64,000 bases of DNA, taken from the sequence record OR896832.1. The stretch is one strand, 5' to 3'. Both the position numbers and the translations under genes were made by a program. The stretch is from Escherichia phage GoldenSnicker. The notes beneath the pieces were generated by a model, which was not told the DNA's origin, searched no databases, and was given only the letters and a program-made list of their open reading frames with translations. The first letter of the stretch is position 1. Each line of letters opens with the position of its first letter. Of the stretch, positions 32,786-46,058 are shown piece by piece.

Positions 32786-33759
32786 TATACGAACTCCAAT
32801 TCAACCATTAATTGCATTAACAAAAAGACAATGTGAATCTCTTTATCAGCCGCGTGCGCAAACATCTGATTATTTTCACCGATAATCTCAGTGAGACGAA
32901 TAATAGACGCTGGCTTAACTTGAGTATACAACTCATTATAAAGTTTCTTGACAAATTGAGCGTATGTATTGGTATAGCGTGGTGCGAGTTTACGCACATT
33001 AGCAAACTGTTTAGTTTTAAGTGCTTCCACCACATCGGTTACTTCGGTATTGCTACTTTCGATAACCATGCTCAATACGCCAGCATCAATTTTACCATGT
33101 TTAGCGTAGCGGTCCAAAAGTTTCATTACGCGTCGGAAGTCTGGGAAGTTCTGCTTAACCAGTTCCGCCAATACGCGCATTTCTTCTACTGGCACACCTT
33201 CTTTATCAAGAATTGCTTTACACCGGACGATCATTTCTTTCATCATGCGAAGCTGATCATCTTTAGTAGGAGATCCAAACGTGATGGGATCAAATCGAGA
33301 TCGTAACGCTGGGATAATACCTTCTAGATCGTTTGCTGTGATAATGAATGTCACGTTGTTTGAGTATGCCTCAGAGAAACTACGCAAGTGTCTTTGAGCG
33401 TCAGCCAAACCCGCTCGGTCATACTCATCGATAATAACAACTTTGCCTTTTTCTCGTTTTTCTTCATCAAGTGATACACTCTGCGCAAAGCGTGTAATCT
33501 CATCGCGGATAAAATCAATCTTACAATCTGCGCCGTTAACAAACAGATAATCGACACCCACATCTTCGCAAAGCGCCTTAGCAACGGTTGTTTTACCAGT
33601 ACCCGGCGATGGGCTATGCAGAATCATTGAAGGGATTCGGCCTTGCTTAACAATCTGCGCGAAGATCTTTTTATCTGCTTCCGGCAGAATACATTCAGAA
33701 ATTGATTTCGGACGGTATTTCTGTTCCCACTGAAACTCATTTTCATTAACACTCAGCAT
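32785..33759 (-). CDS. 44: clamp loader large subunit gp44 (AAA+)
   Basis: Start at ATG after GAGGTGAT RBS; EQKYRPKSISECILP and Walker A GTGKTT as in T4 gp44. Confidence 0.88.
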   Translation of the reverse strand: MLSVNENEFQWEQKYRPKSISECILPEADKKIFAQIVKQGRIPSMILHSPSPGTGKTTVAKALCEDVGVDYLFVNGADCKIDFIRDEITRFAQSVSLDEEKREKGKVVIIDEYDRAGLADAQRHLRSFSEAYSNNVTFIITANDLEGIIPALRSRFDPITFGSPTKDDQLRMMKEMIVRCKAILDKEGVPVEEMRVLAELVKQNFPDFRRVMKLLDRYAKHGKIDAGVLSMVIESSNTEVTDVVEALKTKQFANVRKLAPRYTNTYAQFVKKLYNELYTQVKPASIIRLTEIIGENNQMFAHAADKEIHIVFLLMQLMVELEFV

Positions 33760-39743: not shown

Positions 39744-40031
39744 TTACAGCATACTTAATACCGTTTGCCGTGTACTAATCCACATAGCAGAAAGCAGTTC
39801 TGGCGTGTGTGGCTGTTTGTAGATATCACGTAACTTTCCGATAGCGTAGATATACGCATCACGATTATCATCGATGATAGCTTGTTCAGCCCACCGCTTA
39901 AGGCGTGCAATCTCTCGCGAGTTCTTACGCAAGATCTTTTCCGCTTTCTTAGCGGCTTTAGCCTCTAGTTCTGCTTGTACTTTGTCTACTTCATTCACTG
40001 CAATCTGGTCATGCTGTTCATCGTAAGTCAT
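39744..40031 (-). CDS. hypothetical protein (95 aa)
   Basis: Track ORF. Confidence 0.5.
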   Translation of the reverse strand: MTYDEQHDQIAVNEVDKVQAELEAKAAKKAEKILRKNSREIARLKRWAEQAIIDDNRDAYIYAIGKLRDIYKQPHTPELLSAMWISTRQTVLSML

Positions 40032-40823: not shown

Positions 40824-42293
40824 CTATTCCCCATTGCCATTATACTTTCTTTGCTTAGTTATCCACACTCTAACCATCTCTACTGATTCACCGTCAGACG
40901 GATCAAGAGTTTTTCCCTTTTTCTTCATGCGGTACTTAAATCCGTTAAATCTTGCATTCTCTTGCTCGTTAAAGTCGAACATCTTTTTAAATGATTTTCG
41001 CCCTTTACGCTCACCACATTCTAGCGGAATCATTCGGTCTGTTATTACATTGGCATTAGGTAGAAACGTTTTTAGATAATCTACCAACGCCCAATCAGGA
41101 ACATATAGATTAACATTCTCCTTGCTCTCGTTGTCTCTCAGGTTACAACGCAAACATAATTGAAATGCTGGTTCCAGATAATCAGACACATGACGCGCTT
41201 TCAAAAACTCATTTGTCGGGAGATCACAACTATTAGCAAGACCTTTTAAAATATCAATCTCCCATCGTTGAGGGTTAAAGCTGAACATCACAGCAACATT
41301 TTTATGATGAATGTAAGAGTTAAGACCATAAGACCCGTAAGGTATCCGCTCACCAATACCATTTGTACACGCTTCTCGGTCCCGATTCACGGTATAAATG
41401 AAGTCATCGCCACATTCATTTTTAACCATATCAACAAGACGTTCAAAGGTATTGTTTGTTTCTGACTGGTGACGCGACCATCGTTCAGAGTCCGTCATAA
41501 GGATGATATTAACTCTATCTGTATTTTTATACTCTTTGAAATATAGTCTGGATTCTAGCGCACTCGGAACAAAATCGCAATTTGCATAGTATCGTAGATA
41601 CTTCCCACTATATGTATCAAATAGATTTGCACATGCTATCGTAACCTTTTTAAAGTCTCCCCACGTACCGTGTTTGTTATCGTTCAAGAAAACAATTTTC
41701 GACCCATTCTTCCGGTGTCCTTCGTTATGTTTTACCATAACGTTGATTTTCTTCTCTAATAACGCCTCATAAAGCCCTCTAAGAGAAGAATCGATCATAT
41801 CAGTACCATCCTTTGCACTTTCTATCTTTTCTTTGATAGCGGCCTTCTCAGAGTCTTTTAGAACTAAGTTCTGTAGGCATTCCGATTCGTCGGCGATTGG
41901 TTCGCAATGCTTCGTGATAAGTTCAAGATTAGACTTAAACGGATACTCATTAAATTCAACCAGTTGAGGAACTTCATCAATGTAAAGAGCATATTCACCA
42001 AACATTTTTGAACGTTCCATATTAGATAACGCTGTATGTGTAATGAATATCACATCAGCACCGTCTTTAACTGATTGCATTATCGACGCTTGCACTGTCT
42101 TAAGGCTTCTTAGTCTTGTGCTATCAATCAAGACAGCACGACCGCCCATTCTTTTAAACTTATTGTAAGATTGTTCACTTAAAACACGAGATGGCGAAGC
42201 AATAACCGCTTTTTCTTTTGTCTCTAGGACGTGGGAAAGTATAGCATCAGTTTTCCCCGCCGCTGGCAATGCGATTAATGTTTCAATCTTCAT
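40824..42293 (-). CDS. P-loop NTPase of unknown function (489 aa)
   Basis: Walker A LIALPAAGKTD and Walker B-like LYIDEVPQ in N-terminal ~170 aa; ~300-aa C-terminal region without recognisable motifs. Confidence 0.6.
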   Translation of the reverse strand: MKIETLIALPAAGKTDAILSHVLETKEKAVIASPSRVLSEQSYNKFKRMGGRAVLIDSTRLRSLKTVQASIMQSVKDGADVIFITHTALSNMERSKMFGEYALYIDEVPQLVEFNEYPFKSNLELITKHCEPIADESECLQNLVLKDSEKAAIKEKIESAKDGTDMIDSSLRGLYEALLEKKINVMVKHNEGHRKNGSKIVFLNDNKHGTWGDFKKVTIACANLFDTYSGKYLRYYANCDFVPSALESRLYFKEYKNTDRVNIILMTDSERWSRHQSETNNTFERLVDMVKNECGDDFIYTVNRDREACTNGIGERIPYGSYGLNSYIHHKNVAVMFSFNPQRWEIDILKGLANSCDLPTNEFLKARHVSDYLEPAFQLCLRCNLRDNESKENVNLYVPDWALVDYLKTFLPNANVITDRMIPLECGERKGRKSFKKMFDFNEQENARFNGFKYRMKKKGKTLDPSDGESVEMVRVWITKQRKYNGNGE

Positions 42294-42580
42294 TAGAAAC
42301 CCTTACGTCGTGCTTTCTGGCATTTCTTGATCATTTTATCAGAAATTTCGCGCTTAGGTGCAATCTCTTTCACACCGAAAGCACTAATGCCAAATTCAGA
42401 GAGAATATATTCAACCAACAATTCACGCACACGCGCTTTACCGATATTCACGCCGTTATTTTTCAGATATGTCTGGCCTTCGACTTGCATCAGATCTAAA
42501 TCTGCGTCGGTAATATTGATTTCTTCCATGCGCCCAAATCGAGAATAAACCATGTGTGCGATTGCATTGTGTACTAACAT
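42293..42580 (-). CDS. hypothetical protein (95 aa)
   Basis: Start at ATG after GAGGAATATATT RBS. Confidence 0.5.
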   Translation of the reverse strand: MLVHNAIAHMVYSRFGRMEEINITDADLDLMQVEGQTYLKNNGVNIGKARVRELLVEYILSEFGISAFGVKEIAPKREISDKMIKKCQKARRKGF

Positions 42581-42601
42581 AATATATTCCTCACTCAAGA
42601 A

Positions 42602-42760
42602 TTACTTAATGATACTTACTTTACCAGATCCGTGACAATGAGCGCAACACCCATCACCGCGCAATCCTGTTCCGTTACAGTGTTTACACTTCTTCAACGG
42701 TAAAGTCATTATAGCAAATAAAGCAATAATGAACACCGAAACTAAATTCTCAATAATCAT
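42602..42760 (-). CDS. small membrane-anchored DnaJ-type zinc-finger protein (52 aa), not in ORF track
   Basis: Hand translation MIIENLVSVFIIALFAIMTLPLKKCKHCNGTGLRGDGCCAHCHGSGKVSIIK; two CxxCxGxG repeats after a TM helix. Confidence 0.45.
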   Translation of the reverse strand: MIIENLVSVFIIALFAIMTLPLKKCKHCNGTGLRGDGCCAHCHGSGKVSIIK

Positions 42761-43019
42761 AAATAGCCCTCAGTTCTTTATAGCCTCCAATGTGCTCGTT
42801 GTCAATGAATATCTGGGGGTATACAAACCGGAGGCTCTTTGAGTTTAGCCTCCCCGCCAGTTCTTCAATCATATCACGGTCGGGAATAATGTCAACCCCA
42901 ACCTGCTTGAATACTGGTTTAAGTGTATACGGAATACCCAGATCATCCAGTAGCTTCATTGCACCAATACAACCATAACAATGATAAGCCTCTTTCGGTA
43001 TACCGTATATCTCGATCAT
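42750..43019 (-). CDS. nrdH: glutaredoxin-like protein (NrdH-like)
   Basis: 89 aa; CYGC redox motif near N-terminus; position of T4 nrdH upstream of nrdG. Confidence 0.6.
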   Translation of the reverse strand: MIEIYGIPKEAYHCYGCIGAMKLLDDLGIPYTLKPVFKQVGVDIIPDRDMIEELAGRLNSKSLRFVYPQIFIDNEHIGGYKELRAIYDY

Positions 43020-43492
43020 TTCTCAGCCTTTAATCTTTCTAGTTCTTCTTCCAGTTCCTTGATCCGTTGGTCACGTTCAAAGTCACGCTGTAACTTAGTG
43101 GCGAATACTCGTTTAAACTGATTGTAATCATCGATTTTAAACACTTCTTCTTCGCCATAGCGACGCACAGAAACTTCGTAGTTATTGAAGAATTGTTGCA
43201 TCATTGCTTCGGATGATAGCTCTGCTGATACCACTTTAAAATATTGATCTTCTGTAGGCGAAAACCAATTACAAGCATAAAGATAAACCTTTTCATTGTC
43301 TGGACACTGGTAAGCCTTACCATCGATTTCAATCACAGAAACATATTCAGGTATACTAGATGAATCAATAGCTAAGACTTTAAACGCACGGTCCCCGATA
43401 AACTCGGAGATCACACGATTCGCATCACTGGTTGCAAATGCTTTACGCGCTTGTTCGTTTTTCCACTGATAGGTCATACCAACAACAAACAT
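43016..43492 (-). CDS. hypothetical protein, member of W-x-GKTY paralog family
   Basis: Start at MFVVGMTYQWKNE.. after GAGGA RBS; shares ~90-aa domain (..FKVL..IEIDGK.Y..F..EV) with 43494..45327 and 49703..51791 genes. Confidence 0.55.
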   Translation of the reverse strand: MFVVGMTYQWKNEQARKAFATSDANRVISEFIGDRAFKVLAIDSSSIPEYVSVIEIDGKAYQCPDNEKVYLYACNWFSPTEDQYFKVVSAELSSEAMMQQFFNNYEVSVRRYGEEEVFKIDDYNQFKRVFATKLQRDFERDQRIKELEEELERLKAEK

Positions 43493-43493
43493 A

Positions 43494-44318
43494 TTACCAT
43501 CCTCGCTCTTTACCAATCAAAAATTCAACTTCACGACGTTTAATGTCTTCTTGAAGGTCTTTAATCTTCTGGCGATCTTGCATGATTTCATCCATCTTGT
43601 CAAGTGCCGCAATGAAATCATCGAAACGTTCAAAGGTTTTACCTTCATTTGCTTCGCCAAATTTAACCATTGTCAGGCCGTAACGACTACTAAACAGACG
43701 TTTCAACTGTCCAACGATTTTAGAATCAGTGGTTATAACTTCCAATTCTTCTACTTCACGAAAGATTTTTCTATCAGAATCAATAAACCAGCTAGTTCCT
43801 TTATGGTCTCTATCTTCGGTTGCGCTCATTAGAGTATGGTCTTTACCATCAATTTCAATTACATCAATTTGCCCACATGGACTAACATTTTTAACAGTAA
43901 AAGGTCTATAATTTATTGCTCGTGCAATAACATAATTAAGGTTAGATACGTTTTCAGCATAATGGCAGAAGTCGGTCATAGCATTCGCATCTTTCCAAGT
44001 ATAAGTTTTACCAACTTCCCATTTCTGGGGAACTTCTTCAACTTCACGAAAGAATTTTCTATCGAATGGACTAAAGAAATATGTTGCCGTCCAAATGTCT
44101 TTTCCTGTAGCAGTTTTCGCCGTATGATAAACACCGTCTAGCTCTATTGCATCAATCCAACCGTTACCATCGATCTCGATGATGGTAAATGGCTTGTCAC
44201 CAATAGCTGCACTAATATCGCTGTTAAGTGGAGAAAGAACACCTTCTCCGTTAGTAATAAACTCAGTTTTAGCGTTTTCGTCTTTCCAGGTGTAAGTTTT
44301 ACCAATTTCCCATTTCAT
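43494..44318 (-). CDS. hypothetical protein with two tandem copies of the W-E-x-GKTY-x-WKD domain
   Basis: 274 aa; MKWEIGKTYTWKDENAK.. and internal ..QKWEVGKTYTWKDANAM.. repeats, each followed by ..IEIDG..F.REVEE. Confidence 0.6.
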   Translation of the reverse strand: MKWEIGKTYTWKDENAKTEFITNGEGVLSPLNSDISAAIGDKPFTIIEIDGNGWIDAIELDGVYHTAKTATGKDIWTATYFFSPFDRKFFREVEEVPQKWEVGKTYTWKDANAMTDFCHYAENVSNLNYVIARAINYRPFTVKNVSPCGQIDVIEIDGKDHTLMSATEDRDHKGTSWFIDSDRKIFREVEELEVITTDSKIVGQLKRLFSSRYGLTMVKFGEANEGKTFERFDDFIAALDKMDEIMQDRQKIKDLQEDIKRREVEFLIGKERGW

Positions 44319-44330
44319 AATATATTCCCC

Positions 44331-44795
44331 TTAACCGATTTTATCAAGTTCGTTTAATGCTTTCTCTGCTTCCTGTATAGCTTGCACCCTTTCCGGCATT
44401 TTGTCAAGAAAATCTTTCAACTCTTCAAAACTGGAGATATGACGCAATGCGTTAGCACCGATAGCCGCATGTGATTTGCATTCAAAGCGGATTTTATAAT
44501 TATCCATCGCCAACTTGAGAAGATCAATTAATTTAGATTCTTCTGGAATAATAATTTCTTCAAATCTGCTACGGTCATGATCCAGAAACCAACAAGATAG
44601 ACCTACATCGGTTGAACTCATATAAGTTCCATCATGAAGATAAACAGACCGCACGTATCCTTTTTTCGCATCAACCGACGCAACTTTAAACGGTAATCGC
44701 AGATATTTCAAATAATCAACATCATACCATTTAAAAAATTGGTTTGCATCTTTTACATCTTTCCACGCATAGGTCTTACCAGCTTCCCATTTCAT
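44331..44795 (-). CDS. hypothetical protein, W-E-x-GKTY paralog family
   Basis: Start at MKWEAGKTYAWKD; C-terminal coiled coil. Confidence 0.55.
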   Translation of the reverse strand: MKWEAGKTYAWKDVKDANQFFKWYDVDYLKYLRLPFKVASVDAKKGYVRSVYLHDGTYMSSTDVGLSCWFLDHDRSRFEEIIIPEESKLIDLLKLAMDNYKIRFECKSHAAIGANALRHISSFEELKDFLDKMPERVQAIQEAEKALNELDKIG

Positions 44796-44799
44796 AATA

Positions 44800-45327
44800 T
44801 CATCTCTCATTTTTGATACGTGATTCTAATTGGATCATACGGTCGCGCGTTTGTTTGTATTCTCGGATAGCACCGATCCGGCTAGGCATACCATCCAGTA
44901 CGCTCTTAATACCTTCTAGGGTAGTAATTTTGGCAATGCTATTATGTAACCCCATCTTATCGATCAACTGAATGTCGTAGGCTTCCATAAGCAGACCCAG
45001 GTGTTCTAAAGTTAGGTCTTCTTCTTTTTCTTCCGAATCTGGAATCTTAGGTTCAATAATAACTTCGGTAAAGAAACGACGCTCACCCGACCAAAACCAC
45101 ACACCGGAACAGCCAATAGGGGATTCTTTTAACGTCATAGAGTCGAAATCACTACCAATAATAGTAATTTCTCTAACATCACCATCATCGTCAAGGTCTT
45201 CTACCCTAAACGGGCGACCAGCCAACAAGTCAACAATACATCTGTTAATAGACGACGAAAATTTAGTCAGTTCGGCTTTCGACGCTTCGCATTCAATCTT
45301 GTAAGTTTTACCAACTTCCCATTCCAT
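44800..45327 (-). CDS. hypothetical protein, W-E-x-GKTY paralog family
   Basis: Start at MEWEVGKTYKIE after GAGGTGATTATT RBS. Confidence 0.55.
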   Translation of the reverse strand: MEWEVGKTYKIECEASKAELTKFSSSINRCIVDLLAGRPFRVEDLDDDGDVREITIIGSDFDSMTLKESPIGCSGVWFWSGERRFFTEVIIEPKIPDSEEKEEDLTLEHLGLLMEAYDIQLIDKMGLHNSIAKITTLEGIKSVLDGMPSRIGAIREYKQTRDRMIQLESRIKNER

Positions 45328-45337
45328 AATAATCACC

Positions 45338-45847
45338 TCAAATAATTTTCACTGGAATACTATTAACAATCTTGTATTGTACTTGATTGTCAGACCCCCG
45401 CCACGGCTTCTTCGTTGGCATATCTTTAATATAACGCCCATCGATGAACATGTCAACTGATTCTACAATTTTTCTTTGCTCATCATTCAATTGGTCAAGG
45501 GTATAACCAGACCATAGCCAAATATCTTTATTTGGCATCCATGATTTTACTTCATCGATGATCCGCTGTACACCCTTTAAATTGCGTTTATACAGTGGAT
45601 CGCCACCTAAGAATGTTAGCCCCTGAATAAAATCAGGTCTAAGCAGGTCCAGAATCAATCCCATTGTATCATCGGTGAATGGTTCCCCGTTCTTAGGATT
45701 GAGTAGGCTAGCATTAAAGCAACCATCACATGCGTGTGAACATCCGGTAACGTAAAGGGAGACTCTCACTCCCTCACCGTTAACCATATCACAATCTTTA
45801 ATATCGGCATAGCGTAGTTTGCCGTATGTATCAGAACTCATATTCAA
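45338..45847 (-). CDS. nrdG: anaerobic ribonucleotide reductase activating protein NrdG (radical SAM)
   Basis: 169 aa; radical-SAM cysteine cluster GCSHACDGC; upstream of nrdD. Confidence 0.85.
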   Translation of the reverse strand: MNMSSDTYGKLRYADIKDCDMVNGEGVRVSLYVTGCSHACDGCFNASLLNPKNGEPFTDDTMGLILDLLRPDFIQGLTFLGGDPLYKRNLKGVQRIIDEVKSWMPNKDIWLWSGYTLDQLNDEQRKIVESVDMFIDGRYIKDMPTKKPWRGSDNQVQYKIVNSIPVKII

Positions 45848-45983
45848 TTACCCCGAACTCGTTTACAATCTGCGCTTTATAGTAACCACCGCGAGATGCT
45901 AATAGATAAGCTGGGCTTAGGTATTCGTATTCACGGATTTCTACTTGTGCGTTTTCAGTTTCCCAAATCAGTAAAGTCCACAT
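45831..45983 (-). CDS. hypothetical protein (50 aa)
   Basis: Start at ATG preceded by CAGGAGAATCAAAT; downstream of promoter 46026..46054. Confidence 0.45.
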   Translation of the reverse strand: MWTLLIWETENAQVEIREYEYLSPAYLLASRGGYYKAQIVNEFGVIEYEF

Positions 45984-46025
45984 ATTTGATTCTCCTGTAA
46001 AGTTGTATCTCGTCTTGATGAATAT

Positions 46026-46054
46026 AGTATAGGGGATCTCGCGATCCCCGTCAA
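46026..46054 (-). promoter_or_regulatory. sigma70-type promoter (TTGACG-17-TATACT) with palindromic GATC-containing spacer
   Basis: Minus-strand TTGACGGGGATCGCGAGATCCCCTATACT. Confidence 0.65.
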
Positions 46055-46058
46055 GCAT

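Follow-up and report, generated by a model that had tools for sequence, protein, structure and literature searches.

The window analysed here, a stretch of 64,000 nucleotides of Escherichia phage GoldenSnicker (sequence record OR896832.1), carries a small minus-strand ORF in a variable region bounded by gene 55 and nrdG; its predicted product of 52 residues combines a hydrophobic N-terminal helix with two CxxCxGxG knuckles (Table 1). The start of this ORF (ATG, 42760-42758) shares 11 nt with the end of a glutaredoxin-like ORF of 89 aa (Pfam Glutaredoxin, E 2e-4; NCBIfam glutaredoxin 3, E 1.8e-7), which agrees with the overlap with an nrdH-like stop described in an earlier note on this DNA, and such an arrangement of start and stop implies the translational coupling of both genes. 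The N-terminal transmembrane helix proposed in the same note is borne out by a mean Kyte-Doolittle hydropathy of 2.36 over residues 2-20 and by a modelled helix at residues 2-19, which is flanked by Glu4, with no Lys or Arg, on its N-terminal side, and by Pro21 and Lys23/Lys24 after it. The two knuckles, CKHCNGTG and CAHCHGSG, had also been noticed previously, and they turned out to be the only stop-free CxxCxGxG matches in the six frames of the whole window, which indicates that they are not a chance pattern. On the minus strand, no terminator-like sites were found between positions 40000 and 47000. The T4 late promoter consensus TATAAATA has a single occurrence in the window, away from the zinc-finger gene. 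A near-consensus match to a sigma70-type promoter (TTGACA-16-TATGAT, with an upstream TG) was detected at 42868-42895 of the minus strand, inside the glutaredoxin gene and about 108 nt 5′ of the zinc-finger ATG, but it is no more than a match to the consensus, and conserved codons occupy the same stretch.

Table 1. Features of the zinc-finger gene and its immediate neighbours in the 64,000-nt window.
Feature	Position	Strand	Remarks
52-aa ORF	42602..42760	minus	ATG start; stop (42602-42604) included; translation MIIENLVSVFIIALFAIMTLPLKKCKHCNGTGLRGDGCCAHCHGSGKVSIIK
Shine-Dalgarno GAGGG	42767..42771	minus	7 nt 5′ of the ATG, within the last glutaredoxin codons
Overlap of ORF start with glutaredoxin stop	42750..42760	minus	11 nt, ATGATTATTGA
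Hydrophobic transmembrane helix (predicted)	42695..42757	minus	residues 2-22
First CxxCxGxG knuckle, CKHCNGTG	42665..42688	minus	Cys25, Cys28, Gly30, Gly32 invariant in the family
Second CxxCxGxG knuckle, CAHCHGSG	42623..42646	minus	Cys39, Cys42, Gly44, Gly46 invariant in the family
Upstream coupled nrdH-like glutaredoxin	42750..43019	minus	89 aa; CYGC active site
Downstream gp55.2-like gene, DUF7570	42293..42580	minus	95 aa; starts 21 nt past the zinc-finger stop; own GAGGA Shine-Dalgarno

The earlier note regarded this ORF as unannotated, which does not hold, since it is annotated in phages RB49, W115 and other Krischvirus records. The protein is identical in sequence to RB49p046 (NP_891617.1), a 'hypothetical protein' located between nrdH and the gp55.2-like gene of RB49, while in phage W115 the same ORF is labelled as a 'putative membrane protein'. 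A 100% identical entry, UniProt Q7Y3T0, is also present in the BFVD structure library. Databases already list both the gene and its family under names such as hypothetical or membrane protein. The modest additions made here are the explicit placement among single-centre knuckles of the DnaJ/anti-TRAP type, the predicted topology, the conserved translational coupling with nrdH and the mosaicism of the alleles. Literature searches on phage DnaJ-like zinc-finger membrane proteins, small-protein expression in RB49, Krischvirus zinc fingers and small proteins in phage/FtsH interactions returned nothing specific.

Similarity searches with the 1.8 kb surrounding the ORF retrieved 58 phage records with a DNA identity of at least 90%, all of them Krischvirus or RB49-like T4-type coliphages, with phage kvi as the closest one (99.4% DNA identity over the region) and RB49 at 99.1%. 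A tblastn search with the protein gave the same number of phage records at 90% amino acid identity or more, and the ORF is kept in 58 of 58 Krischvirus records, so that the loss or disruption in close relatives that the earlier note had named as the observation to count against the gene did not appear. Six divergent metagenomic lineages (P0003, P0004, P0005, P0006, P0009 and P0013) keep the same slot, with amino acid identities of 48-85% over the aligned residues, a constant gene order (glutaredoxin, zinc finger, the 55.2-like DUF7570 gene and a gene for a 489-aa DEAD-like protein) and, in each of them, 8-11 nt shared by the start of the zinc-finger gene and the end of the glutaredoxin gene. 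The Shine-Dalgarno motif is retained despite differences in the overlapped glutaredoxin residues, and reads AAGGAG in one of the related contigs (L009). Values of dN/dS for the ORF against three metagenomic contigs were 0.18, 0.21 and 0.36 (Nei-Gojobori), and the zinc-finger half shows four synonymous changes and one non-synonymous change when compared with contig L004. The helix part has undergone substitutions and a 3-residue insertion among relatives, with its hydrophobicity preserved. Low dN/dS, the excess of synonymous changes and the maintenance of a hydrophobic helix together show a real gene held by purifying selection, with the signature of a translated one.

Regarding its relatives, the protein matches PHROG 3931 (E 4.4e-10, 40.5 bits) through residues 9-48, which align with positions 16-56 of the 59 in the profile and cover both the helix and the knuckles, a significant full-length match that places it in this family. 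Full-length homologues of 54-59 aa, about 42% identical (42% over 50 residues), occur in the Ounavirinae: gp113 of Felixounavirus EC6, Felix01p243 of Felix O1 ('hypothetical membrane protein'), a protein annotated as 'dnaJ chaperone' in Kolesnikvirus Panisse, and gp080 of Suspvirus SUSP1, the first knuckle of which is degenerate (CDECEGSD). When 1.84 billion representative proteins were scanned exhaustively with HMMER, only 27 hits reached E ≤1e-3: small proteins with a helix and two knuckles, and bona fide DnaJ co-chaperones with their J, cysteine-rich (CR) and C-terminal domains. Several other matches were set aside. Partial tblastn matches in Synechococcus phage S-RIM2 and in Pseudomonas Pbunavirus fall inside proteins of 285 and 323 aa, respectively, and lie outside the small family; those to lambdoid Q antiterminators are shared zinc-motif noise; a second match within the window (45722-45811) is the radical-SAM cysteine cluster of NrdG; and a related-locus search with the P0005 allele led to one viral contig, with a single knuckle inside an unrelated soluble ORF. 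BFVD contains many other small uncharacterised phage proteins with the same knuckle, which indicates that the motif is common in phages.

The only invariant positions in the family alignment are Met1 and the eight cysteines and glycines of the knuckles (Cys25, Cys28, Gly30, Gly32, Cys39, Cys42, Gly44 and Gly46), while Cys38, which forms a 'CC' motif with Cys39, is frequent but replaceable. Four invariant cysteines would provide the four ligands of one zinc site and, together with the homology to solved zinc sites, they point to a Zn(Cys)4 centre made up of Cys25, Cys28, Cys39 and Cys42. The zinc-finger signature of DnaJ type, as the earlier note had read it, finds support at several levels. 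The family profile matches the cysteine-rich domain of E. coli DnaJ (1exk, E 3.8e-12), human DNAJA3 (2ctt, E 3.1e-7) and 6jzb (E 1.7e-5), as well as the anti-TRAP protein 3lcz (E 1.9e-6), and DnaJ proteins are among the hits of the HMMER search described above. The AlphaFold2 model (mean pLDDT 76) consists of the N-terminal helix followed by short beta-hairpins, and its best PDB superpositions by Foldseek are with anti-TRAP structures 3ld0 (probability 0.97, rmsd 0.9 Å, 29 columns) and 3lcz (probability 0.95, rmsd 0.7 Å, 27 columns), followed by DNAJA2 and the DnaJ cysteine-rich domain, with poor E-values (0.4 or worse) attributable to the tiny size of the domain. The predicted fold is that of an anti-TRAP-like single knuckle, as seen on a predicted model of pLDDT 76.

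By formal thresholds, the protein belongs to neither the DnaJ nor the anti-TRAP family. Its own match to Pfam DnaJ_CXXCXGXG (PF00684) stays at 14.6 bits (E 0.042) versus a gathering score of 32.7, while 12 of 14 family members match that entry (best E 4.7e-5), and the relationship with the DnaJ repeat unit is detectable through the family profile. Two repeats and four invariant cysteines differ from the four repeats and two zinc centres of DnaJ, and no J domain was found in the 52-aa protein by Pfam or NCBIfam comparison, its N-terminus being a hydrophobic helix. Similarly, the score against the RtpA family model (NF058604) is 13.4 bits versus a cut-off of 65, Pfam Anti-TRAP (PF15777) gives a weak match in only 2 of the 14 members, and the helix, which in a soluble TRAP-binding protein would be a C-terminal trimerisation element, is here N-terminal and hydrophobic. 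Judged from its sequence, the protein is best described as a membrane anchor that carries a zinc knuckle of DnaJ type, half the usual size and with a single centre.

The distribution of charges around the helix allows a prediction of the topology. Both the window protein and six of the seven Krischvirus-type alleles lack any Lys or Arg before the helix and have a conserved Glu at position 3-4, and in all of them the net charge goes from 0 to -1 before the helix to +1 to +4 in the 15 residues after it. According to the positive-inside rule, which relates flanking charge to membrane topology, this bias would place the knuckle in the cytoplasm, a location that is also appropriate for a Zn-thiolate site. 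In the Ounavirinae homologues and in the P0009 allele, this bias becomes weak or reversed. Neither an n-region like that of signal peptides nor an AxA cleavage site is present in the window protein.

A different picture of variability emerges when the zinc-finger gene is compared with its neighbours in three Krischvirus-like contigs (Table 2).

Table 2. Amino acid identity between proteins of the window and their counterparts in three related contigs.
Contig	NrdH	Zinc finger	55.2-like	DEAD-like, 489 aa	gp55
L008	94%	49%	99%	100%	99%
L017	99%	73%	96%	69%	97%
L004	98%	85%	98%	71%	97%

At the DNA level, identity to L008 falls to 45-70% across 42602-42760, whereas the flanks (42761-43240 and 42000-42596) keep about 80-100%, and dS reaches 0.5-1.2 in the zinc-finger gene versus 0.13-0.43 in both neighbours. 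On this comparison the zinc-finger slot is mosaic: higher dS than in the flanks, together with the drop of identity, indicates alleles that predate their present flanks and were exchanged by recombination, independently of every phage gene nearby. This exchange is weak evidence that the partner of the protein is not among the neighbouring phage genes, fits with a host-interacting accessory factor, and suggests an interaction with something variable. In more distant phages, no homologue was obtained at the same locus: after translating every ORF between 55.2 and nrdH in RB51 (T4-type Tequatrovirus), Mineola (Jiaodavirus) and Merlin (Moonvirus), none showed a transmembrane helix plus CxxC motifs, and unrelated small ORFs are found there instead. 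In Felixounavirus, Kolesnikvirus and Suspvirus, the homologous gene overlaps a hypothetical gene of 111 aa directly upstream of rIIA-rIIB, away from the glutaredoxin gene that those phages also encode. The 111-aa ORF was considered as a partner gene in common with the Ounavirinae, and has no counterpart in the window.

Other elements of the region deserve a mention in their own right. The 489-aa DEAD-like protein (40824-42293, minus strand; PHROG 2467, with a weak Pfam DEAD match) is mosaic as well, with dS above 2 in L004 and L017, next to gp55 and 55.2 genes that remain at 96-99%. A further recombination patch lies at 43240-43470 of the minus strand, where DNA identity to L008 is 40-77% inside a gene for a 166-aa protein, with flanks at 90-100%. 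This protein is one of four tandem paralogous ORFs (166, 274, 159 and 178 aa; 43016-45336, minus strand), which have in common a module of about 95 aa (W-E-x-GKTY-W-K ... WF ... F-x-EV) that continues into a charged C-terminal tail; the 274-aa ORF contains two copies. The 166-aa paralogue matches PHROG 5347 and, weakly, PHROGs that carry the name 'goF mRNA metabolism modulator'. The coupling of small ORFs to nucleotide-reductase genes seems to recur in the nrdG region, with examples overlapping the nrdG start in the window (45831-46058) and in RB49 (33112-33264, corresponding to L001 6532-6684; a hypothetical protein of 50 aa), and a DUF7170 protein overlapping nrdG in related contigs. In SUSP1 (NC_028808; L021 47422-47857), the glutaredoxin gene gp064 is followed by an overlapping hydrophobic ORF of 66 aa without a Cys motif (gp065), which adds an unrelated second example of translational coupling between a phage glutaredoxin and a small membrane protein.

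Some data on the requirement for this family are offered by a transcriptome-wide CRISPRi-ART screen of phage SUSP1, in which the homologue AVU07_agp080 is listed as PHROG 3931 and 'Not Fit', with row values of 1.05 and 0.11 (PMC11879866, supplementary files 8 and 16). This result indicates that the family is dispensable for plaque formation on laboratory E. coli, at least in SUSP1, where the gene is a distant homologue in another phage family, and the zinc-finger gene of the window is probably non-essential. A comparison of the 52-aa ORF with the PADLOC defence models gave no match.

Altogether, the reading that we tentatively prefer, plausible rather than probable, is that of a zinc knuckle anchored in the membrane and exposed to the cytoplasm. 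Early in infection it would hold or block a partner close to the membrane, and the phage would benefit under certain conditions only. The ORF would be a genuine, translated accessory gene of the early region of Krischvirus (RB49-like) phages, and its product a single-pass protein of the inner membrane, with a four-residue N-terminus in the periplasm, a spanning helix at about residues 2-22, and the 30 C-terminal residues on the cytoplasmic side, where one zinc ion would be bound by the four invariant cysteines of both knuckles to give a compact beta-hairpin knuckle of the DnaJ CR/anti-TRAP type. Stand-alone knuckles such as anti-TRAP and the plant protein FIP work by stoichiometric protein binding, and the same mode of action may apply to the phage protein, whose partner would more likely be a host protein than a phage one. 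An effect limited to certain conditions would explain both the dispensability on a laboratory host and the shuffling of alleles between otherwise near-identical phages.

The main rival looks at the co-translated glutaredoxin instead, so that the partner could be the phage NrdH rather than a host protein. The small protein would then act as a thiol-disulfide switch, a disulfide-isomerase-like module, or a membrane anchor or recruiter of the glutaredoxin, with NrdH reducing or reading it. Plant DnaJ-like zinc-finger proteins have been reported to show disulfide-isomerase-like activity, and an overlap of 8-11 nt with the Shine-Dalgarno motif inside the glutaredoxin gene occurs in every Krischvirus-type lineage, down to 48% aligned amino acid identity. 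The extra Cys38 of the 'CC' motif is common, and the SUSP1 glutaredoxin also precedes an overlapping small membrane ORF, which nevertheless has no Cys motif. The best single-sequence Pfam match of the window protein is the Cys-rich C-terminal domain of GRXCR1/2 (PF23733, E 0.0036), proteins in which a glutaredoxin domain is fused to such a motif, but this match stays below threshold (17.6 versus 26 bits), involves only the 12 residues 22-33, and recurs in 4 of the 14 family members. Moreover, the Ounavirinae homologues adjoin rIIA and no glutaredoxin, and the zinc-finger alleles swap while NrdH stays 94-99% identical, with no co-variation between them, which makes such a link with the glutaredoxin rather unlikely. 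The rIIA neighbourhood in Felixounavirus, Kolesnikvirus and Suspvirus raises in turn the idea of a helper of membrane integrity or lysis timing, working with rII-type proteins or in superinfection exclusion, as could be expected of a small single-pass membrane protein. This role is unlikely, given that the Krischvirus gene sits in the nrdH-gene 55 region without an adjacent rII, that knocking down the SUSP1 homologue left fitness unaffected, and that Pfam, PHROG and PADLOC comparisons revealed no resemblance to any known holin, antiholin or exclusion protein.

The clear sequence relationship with the central domain of DnaJ could also be taken to mean that a mini DnaJ-type finger mimics or competes with the host DnaJ, and so targets the DnaK/DnaJ system at the membrane, in line with the suggestion of the earlier note that the target may be a host chaperone or an envelope process, but beyond the common motif nothing specific points to it. 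Annotations of some homologues as 'dnaJ chaperone' or 'heat shock protein' go in the same direction, but they are name transfers only, and the protein has no J domain, keeps two of the four repeats and one putative zinc site instead of the two-centre V-shaped domain of DnaJ, and scores well under the Pfam gathering threshold. As stand-alone modules of this kind (anti-TRAP, FIP) act on non-Hsp70 partners, an action on DnaK/DnaJ seems quite unlikely. Even less is to be expected from an exported Cys-rich peptide, with the hydrophobic N-terminus as a signal peptide or N-in anchor and periplasmic disulfides instead of zinc. A few loosely related proteins (P0015, P0030) do have positively charged N-termini or a lipoprotein-like signal, but the window protein and its close relatives combine a conserved Glu4 and no Lys or Arg before the helix with Lys/Arg straight after it and no AxA-type cleavage site, and in every solved relative the CxxCxGxG fold forms a zinc site, which makes export highly improbable. 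Finally, the very short length of the ORF and its lack of an above-threshold Pfam match are what could be expected of a chance or non-functional overlapping frame, a notion with practically no credit left, effectively refuted by the comparative data: conservation across two phage families, invariant cysteines and glycines, dN/dS well below 1, and preserved Shine-Dalgarno motif and overlap.

A more daring version of the tethered, partner-binding knuckle, which we consider a long shot, would combine it with the glutaredoxin link. The protein would be a membrane-tethered inhibitor similar to anti-TRAP, whose rapidly exchanged alleles track a variable inner-membrane target of the host, such as a membrane-bound defence or abortive-infection component or FtsH, and whose Zn(Cys)4 site is kept functional or switched by the co-translated glutaredoxin. 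If true, such a redox-gated inhibitor would represent a type of small-protein counter-measure so far undescribed in phages. In its present status, this is a catalogued accessory gene and no new kind of element, but it makes a tractable example of a tiny gene, with an anchor and a zinc knuckle in 52 residues and homologues in two unrelated groups of coliphages. Finding the partner would reveal how phages have turned the DnaJ zinc motif into a minimal binding module located at the membrane, and the reason for the conserved coupling with the glutaredoxin might then become clear.

Among known systems, the closest ones are the PHROG 3931 proteins themselves, such as Felix01p243 and SUSP1 gp080, which share family, length and layout with the window protein, whereas the Ounavirinae genes differ in their position upstream of rIIA, the overlap with a 111-aa gene and the absence of glutaredoxin coupling. 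The DnaJ cysteine-rich domain (PF00684, 1exk) has the same CxxCxGxG repeat with the same Gly spacing, and each of its halves aligns to the phage profile, but it comprises four repeats with two zinc centres within a J-domain co-chaperone, while the phage protein has two repeats and a single predicted centre on a membrane anchor, with neither the J domain nor the C-terminal domains. A closer analogue in size is anti-TRAP (RtpA of Bacillus; 2bx9, 3lcz and 3ld0), with about 53 residues and two adjacent CxxCxGxG-like knuckles, derived from the cysteine-rich motif of DnaJ, that form one Zn(Cys)4 site. It is also the best fold match to the phage model, and acts purely through protein binding to block TRAP. 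In contrast, anti-TRAP is a regulator of Bacillus and no phage protein, soluble, with the knuckle at the N-terminus and a C-terminal helix for the assembly of trimers and dodecamers, whereas the phage protein starts with the helix, which would serve as a membrane anchor. E. coli, the host of the phage, is not known to have a TRAP.

The same architecture is found in plants, where the FtsH5-interacting protein FIP (At5g02160) has a transmembrane helix plus two CXXCXGXG repeats facing the stroma, and binds the membrane protease FtsH5 (PMC5915565). Once its transit peptide is removed, FIP shows the same layout as the phage protein: one hydrophobic anchor, then a C4 finger at the C-terminus built from two CXXCXGXG repeats, no J domain, and the finger on the stromal side, which is the equivalent of the cytoplasmic side predicted here. 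Unlike the phage protein, FIP is eukaryotic, chloroplast-targeted and reported only in mosses and higher plants, and the likeness between them is one of shared motif and layout. In any case, the fold class of this small phage protein is a known one, and its membrane-anchored layout has a precedent in plants.
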